Below the pieces are notes generated by a model that was given only the letters and a program-made list of their open reading frames with translations, ran no database searches and had not been told where the DNA came from. A stretch of DNA of 64,000 bases from Candidatus Moranbacteria bacterium GW2011_GWE2_35_2- (GTDB lineage Bacteria > Patescibacteriota > Minisyncoccia > Moranbacterales > UBA9337). A program made the translations under genes and the position numbers. Shown piece by piece: positions 5,854 through 49,848 of the stretch (position 1 is the stretch's first letter; each line of letters opens with the position of its first letter). The stretch lies in assembly GCA_000990585.1 (NCBI GenBank), contig LBQD01000003.1:79504-143503 (forward strand). The letters run 5' to 3'.

Positions 5854-5883
5854 ATATTACCATATTTCGTAATATGGTAATAT
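5854..5883. terminator. perfect 13-bp-stem palindrome between convergent gatB and miaA. Twin copy at 61475-61502
   Basis: ATATTACCATATT-TCGT-AATATGGTAATAT, followed by a T-run. Confidence 0.6.
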
Positions 5884-6816
5884 TTATTTTTCAATAAAAC
5901 GGGAAACTTCTTTTTCAATATTTGCGTACTTGTTTTTTTCTTTTTGCTCGATTGGAATCCAGATAATTCTTTTGTCTTTTGCAAACCAAGTTCTTTGACG
6001 TTTGGCATAATTTTTTTCTGCCAGGTATATTTTTTCTTTTAATTCCTCTTTGTTTTTTATGTTTCCTTTTAAGTACTCCGGAATTAAGTTGTAACTAAGT
6101 CCAAAGCTTTGGATTTTTTTCCAACTCAGTTTGTATTTTTCATGCAAATCTTTCACTTCTTCAATCATTCCCATTGAAAATCTTCTGGTGACATTTTTTT
6201 TTATTCTTTCATTTAATTCTTCTTTTTCTCTTGCTATACCTATTTGTAAAAAATCATAATTCTTAATTTTTGATTCTTGATTCATGGGTGGGACTTTCCC
6301 GATGGCTTTGCAAATTTCTATTGCTCGAATTAATCTGACTTTATTTTTAGCATCAATATTTTTCGCTCTTTCCGGATCCAGTTTTTTTAATTTATTAAAA
6401 AGGATTTCCGTGCTTAATTCTTGCATCTTAATTCTTAATTCTTGATTTGGTTTTACTTCCGGAAAATCCACGTTGTCGACAAGCGCTTTGATCCAAAATC
6501 CGGTTCCGCCACAAATGATCGGAACTTTGCCGCGCTTCAAAATATCCTTGATTATTTTCTCGGTTTTCTTTTTGAATTTGGCGGCGTTATATTCCGTTTT
6601 TGGCGAGGCGATATCAAGCATATGGTGCGGAACCATTTTTTGTTCCGCTTCGGTTATTTTTCCAGATCCGATGTCCATTCCGCGGTAAATCTGTCGTGAG
6701 TCAGCGGAAATTATCTCACCATCAAATTTTTGCGCAAGCCGAATTGCCACATCCGATTTTCCGGAAGCAGTAGGACCGAGGATGACGATTATTTTATTAT
6801 CGCTTCTAAATTCCAT
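5884..6816 (-). CDS. miaA: tRNA dimethylallyltransferase
   Basis: IVILGPTASGKS P-loop. IPP-transferase family length and motifs. Confidence 0.9.
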   Translation of the reverse strand: MEFRSDNKIIVILGPTASGKSDVAIRLAQKFDGEIISADSRQIYRGMDIGSGKITEAEQKMVPHHMLDIASPKTEYNAAKFKKKTEKIIKDILKRGKVPIICGGTGFWIKALVDNVDFPEVKPNQELRIKMQELSTEILFNKLKKLDPERAKNIDAKNKVRLIRAIEICKAIGKVPPMNQESKIKNYDFLQIGIAREKEELNERIKKNVTRRFSMGMIEEVKDLHEKYKLSWKKIQSFGLSYNLIPEYLKGNIKNKEELKEKIYLAEKNYAKRQRTWFAKDKRIIWIPIEQKEKNKYANIEKEVSRFIEK

Positions 6817-8351
6817 ATGCTTGCCTTGGTGATTTTTGCTTTTATTATTTTTCCGATGAGATTTTTTGACTCCGACGTTTTGTCGGAGTGAAAATTGGGT
6901 ACAATTTTCACATTTTTCATTGTGCGGGTTTTGCCGAAATAGTTTCCGTTTTTTTTGTTTTCAATCAAGACTTCTAAAGTTTTTCCGACATATTTTTTGT
7001 TATTTTCAAAACACGTTTTCTTGAGAATTTCGTTGAGATAATTTGCTCTTCTTTCTTTTTCCATTTTACTGACGTTATCTTTCATTTTCCAGGCGGCAGT
7101 TTGCGGGCGGGGGGAGAATTTTCCGAAAAATACCATATCGAATTTCGCCTTGCGCATCACTTCGGCGCTATCTTCAAATTGTTTTTTGGTTTCTCCCGGA
7201 AAGCCAACGATAATGTCGGAAGTGATTGAAAATGGAACAGCGGGTTTGTGTTTCTTGAATGCTGATTTTATTTTGCGGACTTTTGTCAGATATTCTTTCT
7301 GGGTATATTTTCGGTTCATATTTTTCAAAACTTCGTCGCAACCGGCTTGAATGGGAAGATGGAAATTTTCGCAAACCTTTTTGCATTTGGCGACCGTTTC
7401 AATCATTTCATCAGTCACGTCTTTCGGATGATTGCTCACAAAACTGATCCAAAATTTTCCGGGAATCGCGTTGATTTTTTTCAGGAGTTGGGGGAAATTT
7501 ATGCTATCGTTCTTGACCCCCTCTGTCCTCCGGACATCTCCCCCTTGGAAAGGGGGAGAGGGTAAAGAGGGGGATTTGTATGAATTCACATTTTGTCCGA
7601 GCAGGATGATGTGCTTTGTTCTATTTTTTATCAATTTTTTTATTTCGGAAATTATTTCATCTGCCATGCGGGAAACTTCGCGTCCGCGGGCGTAGGGAAC
7701 AACGCAGTAGGCGCAAAAATTGTTGCAGCCGGTCATTATGGGGACGCCGGCTTGAAATTTATCGGAGTATTTTGGGGTAATCGAAAAATAGGAAGTATTA
7801 TTTTTGCGGGTTGTTAATTCAGGATACGCCGGAATTTTCAATTTTTCCGCCAAAGGCGGACCAGCCTTGGGCTGGCAATTTACAATTTTTCCGCCAAAGG
7901 CGGACCAGCCTTGGGCTGGCAAACAATTTTCAATGACAAATTTTTCAAACTTTTTGAATCCATTGATTGGGAAAAATAGGTCTACTTTGTTTTTCAATCT
8001 TCTTTGCACATCCGGTCTGTTTGCCAAACATCCTGTCAATATGATTTTAATTCTTGATTTCTGATTCTCGATTCCTGATTCTTGATTCCTGTCTCTCAGA
8101 TTATGTATTTGTCCATAAACCCGGTCTTCTGCCATTTGTCGCACTCCGCAGGTATTAAAAATAACCAAATTGGCGTCATTGATGTTTTTGGTTTCTTTAA
8201 ATTTTTGAGACGACAAAAATCCAGCGATTCTTTCGCTGTCGCTGTAATTCATTTGACACCCGAACGTTTTTATGTAATACTTTAGCATTGAAGTTGTTTG
8301 AAAAATAAATAGTAGTTTTTTCAGCATATCAAAAATTGACCCTAAAATCAA
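6789..8351 (-). CDS. miaB: tRNA-i6A37 methylthiotransferase (radical SAM MTTase) with in-frame repeat insertions
   Basis: MTTase N-domain (KTFGCQMN). Radical SAM CNNFCAYC. TRAM-like C-terminus. About 70 aa longer than usual because of repeat-derived insertions. Confidence 0.85.
   Translation of the reverse strand: MILGSIFDMLKKLLFIFQTTSMLKYYIKTFGCQMNYSDSERIAGFLSSQKFKETKNINDANLVIFNTCGVRQMAEDRVYGQIHNLRDRNQESGIENQKSRIKIILTGCLANRPDVQRRLKNKVDLFFPINGFKKFEKFVIENCLPAQGWSAFGGKIVNCQPKAGPPLAEKLKIPAYPELTTRKNNTSYFSITPKYSDKFQAGVPIMTGCNNFCAYCVVPYARGREVSRMADEIISEIKKLIKNRTKHIILLGQNVNSYKSPSLPSPPFQGGDVRRTEGVKNDSINFPQLLKKINAIPGKFWISFVSNHPKDVTDEMIETVAKCKKVCENFHLPIQAGCDEVLKNMNRKYTQKEYLTKVRKIKSAFKKHKPAVPFSITSDIIVGFPGETKKQFEDSAEVMRKAKFDMVFFGKFSPRPQTAAWKMKDNVSKMEKERRANYLNEILKKTCFENNKKYVGKTLEVLIENKKNGNYFGKTRTMKNVKIVPNFHSDKTSESKNLIGKIIKAKITKASIWNLEAIIK
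7516..7578. repeat. GC-rich palindromic module (TCTCCCCCTT-GGA-AAGGGGGAGA) inserted in frame in miaB
   Basis: Perfect 10-bp arms. Locally GC-rich in an AT-rich gene. Encodes SPSLPSPPFQGGDVRRTEG. Related module in the DGR RT at 18009-18050. Confidence 0.7.
7842..7926. repeat. two tandem copies of a 44-bp GC-rich unit inside miaB
   Basis: TTTTTCCGCCAAAGGCGGACCAGCCTTGGGCTGGCAA occurs twice. It holds sub-palindromes CCGCC-AAAG-GCGG and CCAGCC-TTG-GGCTGG. The ORF stays open. Confidence 0.8.
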
Positions 8352-46225: not shown

Positions 46226-47548
46226 GTGTTTATGAAAAGTAAATCAAAGAAAATTCAAATATTAGAAAGAATATTGCGTTTTTTGGCGCGCGCGGTTATT
46301 GCTAAATATGATCCGAAAATTATTGGTATTACCGGTTCGGTGGGAAAAACTTCAGCTAAAGAAGCGATAGTTTTGGTTTTAGGATCAAAATTTCGTGTGC
46401 GAGGAAGCGAAAAAAACTATAACAATGAAATTGGAATCCCGCTTACTATTTTAGGATCTTATGGCGGTGGCGCTTCTTTTTTTGGATGGATGCGAGTTTT
46501 TGCGAAAGGAATTTTTTTACTGATTTTTCCATGGGAATATCCGGAAATTCTAGTGCTTGAAATGGCGGTTGATCGTCCGCAGGATATGGATTATTTACTT
46601 TCCTTCGTTTCGCCGAATGTAGGAGTAGTTACTAATATTTCTTCCAGTCACGGAGAATTTTTTGGTAGCCTTGAAAATATCACCAAAGAGAAGTGGAAGT
46701 TAATTGAAAGTGTGAAAAAAGAAGGCGTGGCAATTATCAATGGCGATGATGAAAATATCGTTAAAGCAAGGGATGGTTTTTCCGGCAGAGTTGTTAATTT
46801 TGGTTTTCAGGAAGGAGTAGAAGTGCAAGCGACTGATGCTAATTTTAATTATTTCGACAGAAAAATTTCTGGAATTAGTTTTAAACTCAATCATCAAGGT
46901 AAGATAATTCCTTTCAGATTGCCACATATCTTGGCGTTTCATCAAGTATATGCCATACTGGCGGCGATTTCAGTAGGGATGCAATTTAGAATAAATTTGG
47001 TTGAAATGGCTCAGTCGTTGGAAAATTTTTTTCCGCCTTGCGGAAGAATGAATTTGCTTGAGGGAAAAAATAAAAGCAATATAATTGATGACACATATAA
47101 TTCTTCTCCGACTTCCGCATTGGCGGCTTTGCGAGCTATGGCAACAGTTTTGGCGCGCAGAAAAATTGTTGTCCTGGGAGATATGTTGGAATTGGGAAAA
47201 GAATCGGAGAGGGGACATTTCGAGGTTATTGCGGAAGTTTTTTCATCTGGAGCGGAATTGTTTTTTTCGGTGGGACGAAGAATGAGAGAAGCAACACGAG
47301 ATTATTTGAGATCAGCGGGTAGAATGGATATGGATGGAAAAAAAGTTTTGTATTTTTCCGATCCGGTTTCTTGTGCAAGAGAACTGAAAAAAATTGTTGA
47401 GCAAGATGATTTGATTTTGGTCAAAGGATCGCAATCAATGAGAATGGAAAAAATTGTCGAGGAGATTATGGAAAAACAATTTGATGCGCGCGAATTATTG
47501 TGTCGCCAATCAAAAGAATGGAGAAAAAAGCCTTTTGTTGAGCCATAA
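46226..47548 (+). CDS. murF: UDP-MurNAc-pentapeptide synthetase (Mur ligase, MurF-like)
   Basis: ITGSVGKTSAKEAIVLVL P-loop resembling MurF TGSSGKTSVKEM. About 440 aa. Confidence 0.7.
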   Translation: MFMKSKSKKIQILERILRFLARAVIAKYDPKIIGITGSVGKTSAKEAIVLVLGSKFRVRGSEKNYNNEIGIPLTILGSYGGGASFFGWMRVFAKGIFLLIFPWEYPEILVLEMAVDRPQDMDYLLSFVSPNVGVVTNISSSHGEFFGSLENITKEKWKLIESVKKEGVAIINGDDENIVKARDGFSGRVVNFGFQEGVEVQATDANFNYFDRKISGISFKLNHQGKIIPFRLPHILAFHQVYAILAAISVGMQFRINLVEMAQSLENFFPPCGRMNLLEGKNKSNIIDDTYNSSPTSALAALRAMATVLARRKIVVLGDMLELGKESERGHFEVIAEVFSSGAELFFSVGRRMREATRDYLRSAGRMDMDGKKVLYFSDPVSCARELKKIVEQDDLILVKGSQSMRMEKIVEEIMEKQFDARELLCRQSKEWRKKPFVEP

Positions 47549-47794
47549 TCAGCCTGTGGATAACTTTTTAATAATGTTGTTGACAGAAAGTCAATTTGGG
47601 TGTGAAATATAAGTGTAAGAAGAAAAAGAGAGCAGTCGGCAGAGAAAACAAAAAATAAATTTAAATAGTCCAATAAGCAAAGACGATGTACTTTGTAAAC
47701 AAAAGACAGTTCCTGAGGGGGTTGTCTTTTGTTCGTTTCCAACTAGTTTTTTTTTGAGGAGGTCGCTTTCAATGAAAGTGATCAAACGAGAAAA

Positions 47795-47998
47795 ATGAAA
47801 AAGAGGAGGAAAATAGTGGGAAATGAAAATTTACTGTTCTCATACGAGCATATTGAAAAAATGAGGATGAGGATGGGACTTTCTCTTGACGGAACTATTC
47901 GGGAGTATGGAGAAAAGTTCCAGAAACCGATAATGGAGGAGGCTTACCAGAGACTTCAGAAAACCCGCGAAAGATTAAATTTGAGAGGTGCGCAATGA
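47795..47998 (+). CDS. hypothetical small protein
   Basis: 67-aa ORF. Weak call. Confidence 0.2.
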   Translation: MKKRRKIVGNENLLFSYEHIEKMRMRMGLSLDGTIREYGEKFQKPIMEEAYQRLQKTRERLNLRGAQ

Positions 47999-48254
47999 AT
48001 ATCGACGCAACTCCCACACCCCCGGAAATTTCTTTTTGTAAGTTTGAATTCAAACTTACTTGTATAACAATACAACAAAAAAAGAAATTTCTCCGGGGCT
48101 TTTTATTTTTTTGCAATCCGACATAATTCCACGGTCGTGGAATTATGTTAATTTTTTTTAATACAGATGTTGGCATTGATTCAAATTTTTCGGTAAATTA
48201 TCAGCTTGATTTATTTTATTTTTGTTGCTAATATAGCTTTTAGTGAAATATTTT

Positions 48255-48289
48255 GGCGCTATCGTCTAGTGGCTAGGACGCCAGGTTCT
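48255..48289 (+). pseudogene. partial duplicate of tRNA-Glu 5' half (acceptor, D-arm, 5' anticodon stem and start of loop)
   Basis: 35/35 identity with 48599-48633. Fused after TTCT to the 32-nt module. Confidence 0.7.
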
Positions 48290-48321
48290 TCGCCCTAGCG
48301 GGCGACCACCCGTTAGGGTGG
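48290..48321 (+). repeat. 32-nt GC-rich two-hairpin module, copy 1 (copy 2 at 48696-48727)
   Basis: TCGCCCTAGCGGGCGACCACCCGTTAGGGTGG = hairpins CGCCC-TAGC-GGGCG and CCACCC-GTTA-GGGTGG. Identical in both copies. Confidence 0.8.
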
Positions 48322-48338
48322 CATCCTTTTGAATTTTT

Positions 48339-48593
48339 ATGTATTATACATATGTTTTAAAAAGTGAAGCGGACAATAATTTGTATATTGGGTATACTGG
48401 CGATTTGAGGCAACGAATAAAAGATCATAATCAAGGAAAAACCAAATCTATAAAACATAGAATTCCATTTAAATTGATTTATTATGAGGCATATAAAAAT
48501 AAGACGGATGCCAGAAAAAGAGAAATAGAATTAAAGAAGAATAATTATCAAAAAGAGCAATTAATAAAAAGAATAGAAAATTCATTGAGATAA
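48339..48593 (+). CDS. GIY-YIG domain endonuclease (URI-type small nuclease)
   Basis: YTYVLKS...LYIGYTGDLRQRIKDHN...Y.E motifs of the GIY-YIG fold. 84 aa. Confidence 0.7.
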   Translation: MYYTYVLKSEADNNLYIGYTGDLRQRIKDHNQGKTKSIKHRIPFKLIYYEAYKNKTDARKREIELKKNNYQKEQLIKRIENSLR

Positions 48594-48598
48594 TGTTC

Positions 48599-48670
48599 GG
48601 CGCTATCGTCTAGTGGCTAGGACGCCAGGTTCTCATCCTGGTAACCGGGGTTCGATTCCCCGTAGCGCTA
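48599..48670 (+). tRNA. tRNA-Glu (anticodon CUC)
   Basis: GGCGCUAUCGUCUAGUGGCUAGGACGCCAGGUUCUCAUCCUGGUAACCGGGGUUCGAUUCCCCGUAGCGCUA. Glu-type D-loop. Anticodon loop UUCUCAU. Confidence 0.85.
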
Positions 48671-48685
48671 CAAAAATATGTATTA

Positions 48686-48748
48686 GGGGGGGTTCTCGCC
48701 CTAGCGGGCGACCACCCGTTAGGGTGGGATTCCCCGTAGTCGCTGCCA
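48686..48748 (+). other. tRNA-Glu T-arm/3'-acceptor-like fragment interrupted by the 32-nt module, ending in CCA
   Basis: GGGGGGTTC-[module]-GATTCCCCGTAGTCGCTGCCA against tRNA-Glu CGGGGTTCGATTCCCCGTAGCGCTA. Confidence 0.6.
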
Positions 48749-48752
48749 TCAC

Positions 48753-48786
48753 AAAAAAACCAACCTTTTCGAGGTTGGTTTTTTTG
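48753..48786 (+). terminator. rho-independent terminator
   Basis: AAACCAACC-TTTTCGA-GGTTGGTTT, then a T-run. Confidence 0.65.
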
Positions 48787-48909
48787 TTGGGAATTTTTCT
48801 TGACAAATAACATTTTTTTTGCTAGTCTGTCAAATCAATTTATAATAGATTAATTTCTTATTTTTCGGGTTTTGGATGAATAAAAAATGTCGAAAAATAA
48901 GGTAAAAAA

Positions 48910-49848
48910 ATGAATATTGTATCAATCAAGAAAAAAGAAATCGCAGTGAGTATTTTATTGTTGGCAATTTTGATTTTGCCTGTTTTTTCTTTTGCCGGAA
49001 CAAGCAAGATCTATGTTAATGATAATGCTAGCGGTAAACAGGATGGAAGCTTGAAGCATCCGTATAAAACAATTACTCAAGCACTTAAAAAAGCTGATAA
49101 AGATGACGAAGTTCATATCGCCAGTGGAACATATAAAGAAAACATTGAGATTCCTAGTCGAGTAAAAGTTTTTGGGAGCGGAATGGATGATGTTGTAATC
49201 GAGGCTAAGGATGGTTCACAAGAAGTGGTTGATATGCATAATAAAAGTGAAATAAACAAAGTAACCGTTCGCGGAGGGGAATACGGTATTGAAGTTGACG
49301 AAAATAGTAAAGCTTCTATTATAAAATGCCGCGTTGTTGATAATGATAAGGATGGAATTTTTATCGAAGGAGGAGATGCTGATGATAAACGCAAAATTTC
49401 TATTGTAGAAAGTAAAATTGAGAAAAACGGTCGCGCAGGGATTTATTCTAAAAAAAGTCGTTTAGTTATTATTGAAAATGAAATAATAGATAATGATAGT
49501 GACGGAATTGATATCGCGAAAGGATCAAGCGCTTGGATTGCGGACAATAGAATTAAAGATAATGGTGGTAGCGGAATGAAAGTTGTCTTGGATGGAAGTG
49601 AAATTTGGACCAAAAACAATACTTTTTATGATAATGATCGCGAAGGAATCGAGATTAACGCATATGGTCAAAATGGAAGAATTGATATTAATAAATCAAA
49701 ATTTTACAAAAATGATCGTTGGGGAATTGCCAAGGTTCAAAAAGGAGAATTTCCGGTTTCTGTTTGGAATGGAGCAGTAGTTCAAGGAGATAATATTTTC
49801 TGGGAGAATAAAACTGGCGATGTTTCCGATGCTATTTCGGTAAAATAA
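48910..49848 (+). CDS. secreted right-handed parallel beta-helix repeat protein
   Basis: Signal peptide. Periodic G-x-x-G-I / N-x-I repeats (EYGIEVDENS, DGIFIEGG, AGIYSKKS, DGIDIAKGS, SGMKVVLDGS, EGIEINAYG). Confidence 0.5.
   Translation: MNIVSIKKKEIAVSILLLAILILPVFSFAGTSKIYVNDNASGKQDGSLKHPYKTITQALKKADKDDEVHIASGTYKENIEIPSRVKVFGSGMDDVVIEAKDGSQEVVDMHNKSEINKVTVRGGEYGIEVDENSKASIIKCRVVDNDKDGIFIEGGDADDKRKISIVESKIEKNGRAGIYSKKSRLVIIENEIIDNDSDGIDIAKGSSAWIADNRIKDNGGSGMKVVLDGSEIWTKNNTFYDNDREGIEINAYGQNGRIDINKSKFYKNDRWGIAKVQKGEFPVSVWNGAVVQGDNIFWENKTGDVSDAISVK

Follow-up and report, generated by a model that had tools for sequence, protein, structure and literature searches.

The tRNA-Glu(CUC) locus described here is probably one copy of a widespread homing-type selfish element that lives in tRNA-Glu genes. 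As a kind of selfish DNA, the element seems not to have been described before: no account of it was found in Rfam or in the openly searchable full-text literature (subscription-only papers being outside this scope). In its autonomous form, a gene of ~250 bp for an Slx1-like GIY-YIG nuclease lies directly 5' of an intact tRNA-Glu gene and 3' of a displaced copy of the 5' part of that gene, with a short palindromic module (M) at the junction. Because the insert carries tRNA nucleotides (nt) 1–35, the whole tRNA gene is regenerated at the DNA level, without any need for an integrase or an intron ribozyme. The element shows polymorphic alleles and tandem arrays and occurs in two phyla; M alone is also found elsewhere in displaced tRNA fragments, at positions that are unpaired, and as in-frame insertions in protein genes. 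If this reading is correct, it would add a third route by which selfish DNA can enter a tRNA gene without killing the cell, being neither a self-splicing intron nor an integrase/att duplication, and a nuclease gene of ~250 bp would rebuild the tRNA gene by duplicating its 5' half. It would also account for tRNA-Glu "pseudogene" fragments and assembly breaks in genomes of Patescibacteria and Bacteroidota.

Architecture of the tRNA-Glu locus and of module M

Coordinates are those of the window, that is, the whole 64,000-nt stretch of Candidatus Moranbacteria DNA analysed, and features lie on the plus strand unless stated otherwise. An A/T-rich block (48206–48254) aligns with the sequence 5' of the plain tRNA-Glu gene in two related loci (L095 and L096) and presumably holds the original tRNA-Glu promoter, now located 5' of the displaced fragment; a promoter scan of this block gave no clean consensus match. 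The displaced 5' copy of tRNA-Glu(CUC) (48255–48289) comprises the 5' strand of the acceptor stem, the D arm, the 5' strand of the anticodon stem, and the anticodon loop up to the second anticodon base (nt 1–35). It is identical at 35/35 positions to 48599–48633 at a spacing of 344 nt, as the original prediction had stated, and the repeat extends to 38 nt at 97% identity. The first copy of M (48290–48321; TCGCCC-tagc-GGGCGA followed by CCACCC-gtta-GGGTGG) sits between tRNA nt 35 and 36, and directly after it comes CATCC (48322–48326), which was correctly read as the continuation of the tRNA (nt 36–40) and is what remains there of the 3' half of the anticodon loop and stem; in relatives this remnant runs up to ~nt 49 before the sequences diverge. 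An A/T-rich leader (TTTTGAATTTTT; 48327–48338), which has no Shine-Dalgarno motif and is too short for a promoter of its own, precedes the gene for a stand-alone GIY-YIG nuclease of 84 aa (48339–48593) that belongs to the UPF0213/YhbQ clade and has an Slx1-like fold. The intact tRNA-Glu(CUC) gene begins 5 nt past the stop codon of this ORF (48599–48671 by ARAGORN; Rfam tRNA, 63 bits) and is the functional copy, regenerated by duplication.

Downstream of the intact tRNA, a spacer (AAAAATATGTATTAGG; 48672–48687) belongs to a second insert, and is missing from the empty allele L095 and found in L093 and L096. It leads into a displaced 3' fragment of tRNA-Glu, which starts with the 5' strand of the T stem and the first three T-loop bases (GGGGGTTC; 48688–48695), is interrupted between T-loop nt 56 and 57 by a second copy of M (48696–48727) that is 100% identical to the first, and resumes (48728–48748) with the 3' side of the T loop and stem, the 3' strand of the acceptor stem with one extra T, and GCCA. 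On either side of this second copy, the T arm is split into GGGGGTTC and GATTCCCCGTAG, in agreement with the proposal that the same module lies within a T-arm copy. The acceptor strand and encoded CCA that had been noted here are present, but this tail is unconserved in L096 (which reads GTAGCTACCGTCA) and in L093 (GTAGCGCTACAAA), and because the acceptor strand contains an extra T, the CCA is probably a coincidence. The fragment is followed, as predicted, by an intrinsic terminator (48751–48787), a perfect 16-bp inverted repeat with a T-run, which is that of the original tRNA-Glu gene; the identical terminator sits directly 3' of the tRNA in L095. All of the sequence features originally listed were recovered at the coordinates given for them, and they go far beyond what chance would produce. 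Six independent assemblies of this strain agree exactly over the locus, which is therefore no assembly artefact.

The 32-nt module M (TCGCCCTAGCGGGCGACCACCCGTTAGGGTGG) has exactly two exact copies in the window, namely those at 48290–48321 and 48696–48727, and 0/100 shuffles match. The module was originally described as forming two hairpins; the exact module and a twin fold conserved in relatives are both borne out, but the minimum-energy fold in the window is a single 12-bp hairpin (−23.2 kcal/mol). As the conserved fold, this single long hairpin was rejected: across relatives it pairs 78.5% of cells, compared with 99.6% for the twin hairpin. The stems covary strongly (30 double-sided changes vs. 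8.1 in shuffles; 0/500 shuffles reach the observed value), as determined from ungapped inserts defined by their flanks only, a MAFFT alignment of the M copies having put its gaps at the ends and not in the loops. M occurs in both orientations, and its loops flip freely and are unconserved; from the partial loop-to-loop complementarity, it reads as a palindrome made of two sub-palindromes. Mimicry of Shine-Dalgarno/anti-Shine-Dalgarno sequences by TCACCC/GGGTGA was also considered for M and rejected, as the stems covary freely and are too distant from the ATG.

The nuclease and its recurrence across two phyla

The 84-aa protein matches the Pfam GIY-YIG family (PF01541) over residues 1–71 (62.2 bits against a cut-off of 22.6; E = 5.7e-17), as originally assigned for this ORF, as well as PDB entries 1zg2 (4.1e-13) and 1ywl (2e-10), reflecting similarity to BH0048 and EF2693; by these matches, it can be classified as a UPF0213/YhbQ-like, single-domain, stand-alone GIY-YIG protein. 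The AlphaFold2 (AF2) model (pLDDT 92.4; element order E-E-H-E-H-H) has the beta-beta-alpha-beta-alpha fold of GIY-YIG domains, and Foldseek matches it to 1zg2, to Slx1 (6seh, 7cq2; TM ~0.67 over the domain), and to I-TevI (1ln0). Residues Y5, Y16, G18, R26, and E62 are invariant in 26 homologues, and H30 is nearly so; Y5, Y16, R26, and E62 presumably correspond, by alignment, to Y6, Y17, R27, and E75 of I-TevI. The low dN/dS of the gene (0.04–0.10) points to a functional nuclease under strong purifying selection. According to Pfam and the AF2 model, the whole protein amounts to the 84-aa catalytic domain, without a DNA-binding domain for a long recognition site, and the target predicted for the nuclease is read from the insertion point at nt 35/36 alone.

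Slx1 and UPF0213 proteins (YhbQ, YazA, BH0048) give the best sequence and structure matches and share the small stand-alone GIY-YIG domain; the tRNA-linked clade nonetheless forms a distinct, tightly conserved subfamily (at least 54% identity), from which ordinary YazA/YhbQ-type homologues differ in identity (~40%) and, apparently, in genomic context. Only these latter homologues, in other contexts, were found in the phage and plasmid collections searched, where there was no sign of a phage or plasmid vector for the element, and none of 50,697 phage records held a close homologue of the 84-aa protein. If the homing-type reading holds, it would provide a concrete function for a subfamily of the widespread UPF0213/YhbQ proteins, bacterial Slx1-like nucleases that lack an assigned role.

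Relatives of the 84-aa protein (54–99% identity) are encoded in 79 non-redundant loci from Patescibacteria and Bacteroidota, the source names including Moranbacteria and other Parcubacteria, and also Flammeovirgaceae and Bacteroidales. A tRNA gene adjoins the ORF in 57 of the 79 loci; 56 of these are tRNA-Glu, starting within ~40 nt of the ORF end, and one is tRNA-Arg(TCG) (L082). M, as a GC-rich twin-hairpin palindrome of 29–32 nt, lies within 90 nt upstream of the ORF in 55/79 loci, and both tRNA and M are present by strict criteria in 43/79, so that the architecture recurs in 43–55 of the homologous loci. The distance from the end of M to the ATG is 12–52 nt (median 21), and is kept in loci where the surrounding tRNA fragment is eroded (L013, L020, L024, L069, and L076). 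Displaced 5' tRNA-Glu fragments, variably eroded or missing in individual relatives, occur in most related loci, with M mostly placed exactly between nt 35 and 36: among 84 positioned copies, 61 are at nt 35/36, 10 at 56/57, 4 at 22/23, and 3 at 8/9. The T-loop placement seen in the window has 10–13 counterparts in related loci. To judge from these comparisons, dozens of unrelated bacteria share the design, which does not represent a one-off rearrangement. Tandem arrays (L024, L060, L073, and L074) suggest that the regenerated tRNA can be re-invaded. The outer 5' and 3' fragments of L036 agree with one another but differ from the inner tRNA in the acceptor stem; mismatches of this type are also found in L008, L017, L018, L025, L029, and L054.

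Four loci share the same site downstream of murF: L095 is empty, L096 has the tRNA and the T fragment only, and the window and L093 are full. Relative to L095, the window contains a 344-bp insert at nt 35/36, consisting of M, CATCC, the leader, the ORF, and tRNA nt 1–35, so that the insertion boundaries are defined by a relative that lacks the GIY-YIG gene, as had been suggested for this locus. At another site, two tandem units (L097) are found where L099 has one. Presence/absence polymorphism at a conserved site, as expected for homing, is therefore seen both at the murF site and between L097 and L099, and the three states at the murF-downstream site (empty, T fragment only, and full) indicate that the element is mobile. 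L096 contains an M-bearing fragment without an ORF, and the M copy in its T fragment has decayed; in L093, the T-fragment M unit is tandemly repeated. Between the window and L093, identity is 93–100% in the element and 65–85% in the flanks. Between the window and L096, a stretch of 89–100% identity (47501–47800) lies beside a murF gene that is 75% identical. These populations are recombination mosaics, and the step in identity at the element is thus no proof of nuclease-driven transfer.

A structure-based scan for M under strict criteria found 96 copies in 466 kb and none in shuffles of the same 466 kb, and the window has four copies; 93 of the 96 lie within tRNA fragments beside a GIY-YIG ORF. 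The two remaining window copies are in miaB, which is on the minus strand. One (TCCGCCAAAGGCGGACCAGCCTTGGGCTGG; 7846–7875) is an exact 10-codon in-frame insertion that is missing from the closest MiaB relatives. The other (7890–7919) is identical to it and is read in another frame (QPKAGPPLAE); it recurs at the same site in the more distant L102 (29/30 identical) and is missing from the closer L101, in which both miaB sites are empty. These insertions are exactly 30 nt long and polymorphic, and lie at a target, AATTTT^CAA, that is similar to the anticodon loop. No target-site duplication was found at the miaB insertions, and in the tRNA fragments the tRNA sequence resumes at the base right after M. 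The exact in-frame miaB copies that close relatives lack argue that M is mobile by itself, and like miniature elements it is short, structured, multi-copy, polymorphic in its insertions, and non-coding by itself. Additional copies outside a tRNA context occur in an intergenic region of L012, in the miaB tail of L102, and on L103, a contig classified as viral; a scan of viral contigs yielded a single copy, which is intergenic with no tRNA near. The stems of the dispersed copies belong to a subfamily (TCCGCC/CCAGCC) unlike the M of the tRNA locus in the same genome. A search of the window allowing up to three mismatches missed the miaB copies, which were found by the structure-based scan alone; a scan of reference genomes with the narrow pattern CGCCCNNNNGGGCGNNCCACCCNNNNGGGTGG (the source genome not being among them) returned one chance match, in Curtobacterium.

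The original prediction, which offered several unranked alternatives, is thus partly supported. A homing or integrative mini-element that duplicates tRNA segments accords with the 344-bp insert relative to L095 and with the recurrence in 43–55/79 loci, and a novel loop-targeting insertion element is a fitting description of the module itself (nt 35/36, 56/57, 22/23, and 8/9 of tRNA fragments, and alone in miaB). An invariant architecture among relatives, with neither presence/absence polymorphism nor other module copies, had been named as grounds for abandoning it; such polymorphism exists, and the diverged miaB pair shows that copies of the module lie outside this locus as well.

Proposed mechanism and competing explanations

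For the homing-type element that we favour, we propose that the nuclease cuts tRNA-Glu genes that lack the element, within the anticodon loop or close to it (TT[T/C]T^CA), and that the break would be repaired by copying the occupied allele, with the two halves of the conserved tRNA acting as homology arms. M would mark the junction and would destroy the target in the displaced fragment. Short tRNA-like flanks might then let M be copied alone into similar sites by short-patch repair, which is the proposed origin of the T-loop, D-arm, and miaB copies. Transcription of the ORF would start at the old tRNA promoter and run through the fragment and M, with RNase P freeing the tRNA from the same transcript. 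Several observations count against homing. Classical GIY-YIG homing endonucleases possess a DNA-binding domain that gives them long targets, and the bare 84-aa protein has no such domain. The inner tRNA has the same anticodon arm as the supposed target, which leaves self-cleavage unexplained, and a dN/dS of ~0.05 is below that expected for a purely selfish homing gene. The D-loop variants of L093, of which the outer fragment is window-like and the inner tRNA L096-like, appear opposite to the simplest prediction for homing by a break at nt 35/36. Finally, the dispersed M stems, being unlike the M of the tRNA locus in the same genome, leave direct copy-out from that locus no more than putative.

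A bolder proposal, which we hold only tentatively, is that the GIY-YIG protein and M together constitute a new class of prokaryotic mobile DNA. Here, a structure-specific Slx1-like nuclease would recognize either M or the unpaired parts of a tRNA gene extruded as a cloverleaf, and M would be mobilized in trans, entering cleanly and without target duplication at unpaired tRNA positions and in frame in protein genes. The master copy would resemble a natural "cleave-and-rescue" element, in that M would disable the resident tRNA-Glu and a replacement tRNA would be carried or regenerated beside the nuclease gene, making the element hard to lose.

We consider it unlikely that M is instead an independent, genome-wide miniature palindromic element (of the MITE, REP, or RPE kind), moved by another enzyme or by replication slippage, for which TTYT^CA would be a favourite target, the GIY-YIG gene an unrelated neighbour, and the tRNA duplications a means of surviving otherwise lethal M hits. 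The copies outside a tRNA context (miaB in the window, L012, L102, and L103) fit such an element, as do the distinct stem subfamily of the dispersed copies, the M-bearing fragment that L096 retains without an ORF, and the occurrence of both orientations and flipped loops, which is expected for a DNA palindrome. An unrelated neighbour is hard to reconcile with the extreme linkage of 93 of 96 strict copies to a GIY-YIG ORF in tRNA fragments, with an M-to-ATG distance that remains fixed at 12–52 nt even where the tRNA fragment is eroded, or with the joint travel of ORF, tRNA, and M across two phyla; moreover, M is decaying in the ORF-less L096 and its stems are perfect beside ORFs. It is appreciably less probable still that M and the tRNA fragment serve as a functional RNA leader of the nuclease mRNA (a 5' stabilizer, an attenuator, an autoregulatory protein site, or a type III-like RNA antitoxin), with the downstream M fragments as by-products. 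This would explain the conserved position of M relative to the ATG and the strong stem covariation, and two similar hairpins would fit a protein dimer; the space is also too small for a second promoter, which obliges M to be transcribed as part of the 5' untranslated region, and M together with CAUCCUUUUG scores as terminator-like in the window. However, the U-tract past M is unconserved, relatives reading CATCCTAAAA, and M occurs in both orientations, antisense in the miaB coding sequence, and in untranslated downstream fragments, with loops that flip freely and are unconserved. Only 6 of 732 pairs in M are non-Watson–Crick, which is uninformative with respect to RNA or DNA structure, and G-U is no commoner than C-A (2 vs. 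4), hence there is no strand-specific RNA signature. A leader would, furthermore, leave the tRNA duplication and allele polymorphism unaccounted for, although it could be an additional role of M.

The two remaining proposals for the fragments, namely decayed att sites from integrase-driven integration and excision of larger elements, or split, permuted, or intron-containing tRNA halves joined as RNA, are already contradicted by the data, and we regard either as highly improbable. In their favour, tRNA genes are well-established targets of integration, and integrated elements are flanked by partial tRNA copies (PMC9897764); serine-recombinase genes lie just 3' of the tRNA in L010 and L013; and group I introns occur in anticodon loops of Patescibacteria tRNAs, including position 35/36 (PMC13011429). 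Att-type integration would also produce what is seen here, an insert bounded on each side by directly repeated tRNA sequence (35–38 nt), with one tRNA copy complete. Against att sites, a recombinase gene is found neither inside nor beside the 344-bp unit in the window, the repeated part is the 5' part of the tRNA, and M is conserved with compensatory changes. Against assembly from halves, the M copies are identical and not complementary; nt 41–49 are absent from the window fragments, which have a disrupted acceptor strand and do not sum to a tRNA, and in relatives the fragments are eroded or missing; an intact tRNA in any case makes assembly needless. No complementary leaders or bulge-helix-bulge motif by which halves could be joined were found. 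ARAGORN and Rfam reported the intact gene alone, and Rfam yielded no intron or other family at E ≤ 10 in 47500–49500 or in 16 related loci. The 32-nt module is too small for a ribozyme. Group I introns, tmRNA, permuted tmRNA, and the Flavo-1 motif (a twin-hairpin motif) were each rejected as identities for these sequences, Rfam giving tRNA only in the window and the same 16 loci.

Comparison with known mobile elements

One close parallel, a homing gene associated with tRNA genes, is SegB of phage T4, a free-standing GIY-YIG homing endonuclease encoded in a tRNA gene cluster (PMC2330249). In both cases the GIY-YIG gene lies between or beside tRNA genes and not within an intron (PMC2330249), is co-inherited with flanking tRNA sequence, and shows presence/absence polymorphism between related genomes. 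SegB is longer and has been shown to be site-specific (PMC2330249), whereas the protein described here is a bare 84-aa catalytic domain; the element, moreover, is within the tRNA gene at nt 35/36, with the 5' part duplicated and a palindromic module at the junction, and is carried on the chromosomes of Patescibacteria and Bacteroidota, not by phages. The anticodon loops of bacterial tRNAs, in Patescibacteria also at position 35/36 of tRNA-Asn, can harbour group I introns that carry homing endonuclease genes (PMC13011429). These introns share with the element the anticodon-loop insertion, the host phylum, and a selfish insert that spares tRNA function. Unlike these introns, the element has no ribozyme, with only 12–52 nt of non-coding sequence between M and the ORF, and tRNA function would be kept by duplication at the DNA level and ordinary 5' processing, not by splicing. 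Islands and prophages of the integrase type in tRNA genes carry a displaced copy of a tRNA segment (Reiter, 1989; Williams, 2002; as relayed in PMC9897764). As in such islands, a complete and a partial tRNA flank the insert, the tRNA remains functional, and a conserved tRNA offers a target that is portable across hosts. The insert here is only 344 bp and encodes no recombinase of the tyrosine or serine type; atypically, it is the 5' part that is duplicated, with the intact copy on the 3' side; and a palindromic module, not a simple att core, occupies the junction.

With respect to M, the IS200/IS605 family provides a second point of reference, its members having hairpin ends, inserting without target-site duplication beside a short specific motif, and giving rise to non-autonomous mini-copies. 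M resembles them in its hairpins, its duplication-free insertion by a short motif, and its mini-copies. No Y1 (HUH) transposase (TnpA) or TnpB was present at the loci examined; the linked protein is instead a GIY-YIG nuclease, its ORF lies outside the hairpin pair and not between the hairpins, and GIY-YIG nucleases are not known to carry out strand transfer. If the chemistry proposed for the element were confirmed, a compact nuclease and an apparently precise, duplication-free module could be of use to tool builders. Target-site duplication is a feature of classical MITEs.

Rickettsia palindromic elements (RPEs) are ~100–150 nt long and insert in frame into genes (reviewed in PMC10969869). M is likewise small, palindromic, multi-copy, and polymorphic, is tolerated as a 10-codon peptide in MiaB, and is also found in RNA-gene sequence. 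It differs from RPEs in its length (29–32 nt), its two sub-palindromes, its lack of a target-site duplication, its overwhelming linkage to one protein-coding gene and one tRNA, and the phyla in which it occurs. The miaB copies would represent a 30-nt palindromic module that enters proteins in frame in ultra-small bacteria, and some of the odd peptide insertions that are typical of ultra-small bacterial genomes may derive from M.

A mobile GIY-YIG element in tRNA-Glu

The original prediction of an intact tRNA-Glu(CUC) gene with a 35-nt repeat of its 5′ end 344 nt upstream is borne out by ARAGORN, Rfam and a repeat search: the gene lies at 48599–48671 (Rfam tRNA, 63 bits), and its nt 1–35 recur exactly at 48255–48289, in a repeat that extends to 38 nt at 97% identity. 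The displaced 5′ copy is abutted, after the second anticodon base, by a GC-rich 32-nt module (TCGCCCTAGCGGGCGACCACCCGTTAGGGTGG; 48290–48321; hereafter M), which is followed directly by CATCC (tRNA nt 36–40), a 12-nt A/T leader and an 84-codon ORF (48339–48593), whose predicted GIY-YIG identity agrees with a Pfam match (E = 5.7e-17). The same module was also said to occupy a T-arm copy, and an identical second M (48696–48727) indeed divides such a copy into GGGGGTTC and GATTCCCCGTAG, with a terminator hairpin beyond; by chance alone the window would contain no exact copy, yet it has two. The locus is identical in six independent assemblies of one strain (Candidatus Moranbacteria GW2011_GWE2, Rifle groundwater).

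Comparison with relatives, as originally proposed, uncovered presence/absence polymorphism downstream of murF, where four Moranbacteria lineages display three allelic states (comparison loci from other genomes and metagenomes are designated by L numbers). L095 (MurF 75% identical) is an empty site, consisting of the upstream block, a plain tRNA-Glu(CUC), a terminator and the same downstream beta-helix gene. L096 is partial, with the tRNA and the downstream T-arm fragment alone, in which M is visibly decayed. L093 (MurF 77%, GIY-YIG 99% identical) carries the full element and at least three tandem 74-nt units (5859–6041) that run to the contig end, each comprising a spacer, GGGGTTC, M and GATTCCCCGTAGCGCTA, i.e., T-arm half, M, T-arm half and acceptor strand. 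Three similar units occur in L050; such arrays may break assemblies, and the contig L094 ends exactly in the anticodon loop.

Relative to the empty site, the insert in the window at nt 35/36 is exactly M, CATCC, leader, ORF, TGTTC and tRNA nt 1–35; the T-arm fragment aligns as a second, separate insert between the tRNA 3′ end and the terminator. Judged from these alignments, the insertion point is shown to be nt 35/36 and the insert end to copy tRNA nt 1–35, which regenerates the gene, in keeping with the earlier suggestion of a homing or integrative mini-element that duplicates tRNA segments. Identity between the window and L093 is 93–100% in the element and 65–85% in the flanks, a step to be read with the caveat of recombination mosaicism among co-occurring Moranbacteria, as indicated by a patch unrelated to the element (47501–47800) that is 89–100% identical in nucleotide sequence to L096, beside a murF only about 75% identical. 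The distribution of D-loop variants in L093 is the reverse of what the simplest form of homing predicts. Upstream in the window, a perfect 13-bp inverted repeat (ACATAATTCCACG/CGTGGAATTATGT; 48121–48148) with a T-run resembles a terminator; the ~90-nt block that contains it is shared with L096 and missing from L093 and L095.

At another locus, two tandem units of fragment, M, leader and ORF (L097) correspond to a single unit in L099, and similar tandem arrays were found in L024, L060, L073 and L074, suggesting that the regenerated tRNA may be re-invaded. The outer 5′ (GGCCCGT...) and 3′ (...ACGGGCT) fragments of L036 pair with each other, whereas the acceptor stem of the intact tRNA between them differs, as expected if ORF and tRNA had entered a resident gene as a cassette. 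Such outer/inner mismatch also occurs in L008, L017, L018, L025, L029 and L054; at most loci the copies are identical.

The ORF product, an 84-aa protein of the UPF0213/YhbQ clade (PDB 1zg2 at 4e-13; 1ywl at 2e-10), consists of a stand-alone GIY-YIG domain and lacks a DNA-binding domain. The AF2 model (pLDDT 92.4) has BH0048, the Slx1 nuclease domain and the I-TevI catalytic domain as top Foldseek matches; Slx1 is a structure-specific nuclease for branched DNA. Residues Y5, Y16, G18, R26 and E62 are invariant in an alignment of 26 homologues, and dN/dS between lineages is 0.04–0.10; at the sequence level, the putative nuclease is thus shown to be functional and under constraint. Phage and plasmid collections yielded only ordinary homologues (about 40% identity).

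Distribution and variation of related loci

The same layout occurs at relatives encoding a protein 76–84% identical. In L008, modules of the M type occupy both the D arm and the anticodon loop of a tRNA-Glu 5′ fragment, which precedes CATCC, the ORF and an intact tRNA-Glu; at a different locus (L012), a tRNA-Glu(UUC) has its 5′ fragment upstream and the matching 3′ part beyond its 3′ end, with modules in both anticodon loop and T loop. For a census, 80 metagenome loci were fetched by alignment of the 26 homologues, giving 79 non-redundant loci including the window. A tRNA starts −25 to +40 nt from the ORF end at 57 of the 79 (56 Glu, one Arg), a further six being interrupted by a contig end; M ends 12–52 nt (median 21) 5′ of the ATG at 55/79, and both features are present under strict pairing rules at 43/79. 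The remainder are mostly slightly degenerate, truncated or mirror-arranged, the last (L040, L041, L044, L052 and L056) having the order intact tRNA, ORF, [GGTTTT M CATCC...3′ end].

At many loci (e.g., L022, L023, L026, L033, L034, L036, L046 and L048) the ORF terminates at the TAG within the D loop of the tRNA (GGTTAG), so that the tRNA gene encodes the last 6–7 residues (C-terminal MASSSNG and similar); RNase P processing there would strip the stop codon from the mRNA. Hosts named by the sources are Moranbacteria, Falkowbacteria, Colwellbacteria and Portnoybacteria, as well as Flammeovirgaceae and Bacteroidales; L097 is a 3.1-Mb genome with Bacteroidota-type neighbor genes. Across the aligned loci, a conserved palindrome is shown to mark the junction with the displaced fragment, and the insertion to be polymorphic, array-forming and present in two phyla.

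The design recurs on tRNA-Arg(TCG) in L082, where M occupies 34/35 and the D loop of the fragment contains a twin hairpin with a 22-nt A/T loop. The same contig (3360–3560) has a tRNA-Lys 5′ fragment (GCGCCCATAGCTCAGCCTGGTAGA) ~100 nt 5′ of an intact tRNA-Lys(CTT), without an intervening ORF, possibly left behind on a different tRNA by a similar element that has since been lost. In the marine locus L086, the outer fragment carries one GC palindrome, at nt 12/13.

Module M within and outside tRNA fragments

Of the 84 M copies close to these ORFs, nt 35/36 (GGTT[T/C]T^CATCC; ^, insertion point) accounts for 61, T-loop position 56/57 (GGTTC^[G/A]ATTCC) for 10, 22/23 (GGTTAG^GAC) for four and 8/9 (GGCCCGTT^CGTCTA) for three; a few have hybrid flanks (e.g., L010, L040) and look like recombination deletions between two M copies. 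In the cloverleaf, 35/36, 56/57 and 8/9 are unpaired, and 22/23 is the D stem/D loop boundary.

M consists of two neighboring 6-bp stems (YCNNCC...GGNNGR) with loops of 3–6 nt. Covariation was assessed on copies chosen by flanking tRNA sequence alone, pairing not being a criterion: the twin-hairpin fold pairs in 99.6% of cells, with 30 double-sided compensatory cells against 8.1 after shuffling (0/500 shuffles reached the observed value). The original description of two hairpins therefore stands as the fold conserved in relatives, although the minimum-energy fold of the window M is a single long hairpin, for which the share of paired cells falls to 78.5% across relatives. Because loop 2 tends to be the reverse complement of loop 1 (taac/gtta, ttc/gaa, aaa/ttt), M is a ~30-bp palindrome of two sub-palindromes; in L013 the palindrome spans 32 bp and is perfect. 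Copies of M are found in either orientation, and also with one loop flipped independently of the other (e.g., L066 at +163 and +265; L033), as is typical of DNA palindromes. Only 6/732 stem pairs are non-Watson–Crick, which provides no signal separating RNA from DNA structure, and no Rfam family matched M from the window or related loci.

The search for further module copies, also proposed at the outset, was rewarded by a structure-based scan of the whole window, which found two (7846–7875 and 7890–7919; both TCCGCCAAAGGCGGACCAGCCTTGGGCTGG; none in 20 shuffles). Both lie within a miaB-like gene (6789–8351, minus strand), where each adds exactly 10 codons in frame: the protein in the window has ENC[LPAQGWSAFG]GKIVNC[QPKAGPPLAE]KLKIP where its closest relatives (79–83% identity) have ENLL-KIVNC-KLKIP. 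Both sites are empty in the DNA of L101; the more distantly related L102 shares the second copy (29/30 identical) and contains another M-like module encoding a CHPTGGRPQNE tail. The plus-strand targets (AATTTT^CAA) resemble the anticodon-loop target, and the miaB insertions have no target-site duplication. An intergenic copy occurs in L012 (2169–2202), and the sole M-pattern match in 2.9 million IMG/VR viral contigs (TCAGCCgaaGGCTGATCAGCCtctGGCTGA; L103, 356–385) is intergenic on a contig without a tRNA. Copies outside tRNA are rare: the 466 kb of DNA retrieved contain 96 strict copies of M, 93 of which lie in a tRNA-fragment context. From its occurrence at 35/36, 56/57, 22/23 and 8/9 and alone in miaB, M is shown to spread by itself, and the notion of a novel loop-targeting insertion element is upheld for M itself.

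The same miaB gene has other variable tracts. A GC-rich in-frame insert of ~10 aa at about 7500–7570 (minus strand; SPSLPSPPFQGGDVRRTEGV vs. SPS-PS----GRGV in relatives) contains hairpins (TCTCCCCC..GGGGGAGA and TGTCCggaGGACA) and may therefore represent a different palindromic module family; L102 miaB has several similar inserts (PPSNSPPGKEGG, IPPNPPFPKGE) and adjoins a reverse-transcriptase gene (RVT_1; 1930–2130). At 8040–8100 (minus strand), RNQESGIENQKSR is encoded by imperfect repeats of a heptamer, (GATTCNT)n, that vary in length among relatives, P0244 being without 7 aa and others shorter still.

Proposed mechanism and alternatives

We propose that the nuclease cuts an unoccupied tRNA-Glu gene within the anticodon loop, and that break repair would copy the element from an occupied allele, with the two halves of the tRNA providing homology that is portable owing to the near-invariance of tRNA-Glu. 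M would spoil the target in the displaced fragment, and short-patch repair off an M-bearing template could insert M by itself at similar sequences (T loop, D arm, nt 8/9 and miaB). The ORF appears to have no promoter of its own and is probably transcribed from the old tRNA promoter through fragment and M, after which RNase P would release the tRNA from the transcript. To judge from the Slx1-like fold of the model and from the insertion positions being unpaired, the protein may recognize extruded DNA, in hairpin or cloverleaf form, or else M itself.

The element would work like a free-standing homing endonuclease gene, such as T4 SegB at tRNA genes (PMC2330249). The outcome is that of tRNA group I introns (PMC13011429), but without a ribozyme, and of integrase-borne att duplications (PMC9897764), but without a recombinase and with a duplicated tRNA segment that is 5′ instead of 3′. 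The original suggestion of decayed att sites fails on these last two points, and remnants of att sites are very improbable, as is a tRNA that is split, permuted or interrupted by an intron. M behaves as a miniature counterpart of the in-frame Rickettsia palindromic elements (PMC10969869). That M is an independent palindromic MITE for which the tRNA-Glu loop is a hot spot is unlikely. A role of M as RNA leader, attenuator or antitoxin is less probable still, and would be compatible with the homing mechanism proposed here. The conserved junction palindrome and a nuclease reduced to a bare catalytic domain set the element apart from the systems compared, and no earlier description of it was found in Rfam or in full-text literature covering few subscription journals. 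That nuclease and palindrome form a categorically new transposition or "cleave-and-rescue" system is conceivable but doubtful.

In one Moranbacteria lineage (L008/L009, 4128–5552), an IS110-family transposase gene (Transposase_20) lies between murF and the element. Serine recombinase genes (Resolvase and Recombinase domains) immediately follow tRNA-Glu, on the opposite strand, in L010 (6293–7805) and L013, preceded by a flank (CCATCAAAAAACTTTCCGAAAATTTTGCGG) common to L008, L010 and L013; these look like a separate integrative element that uses the 3′ end of the same tRNA.
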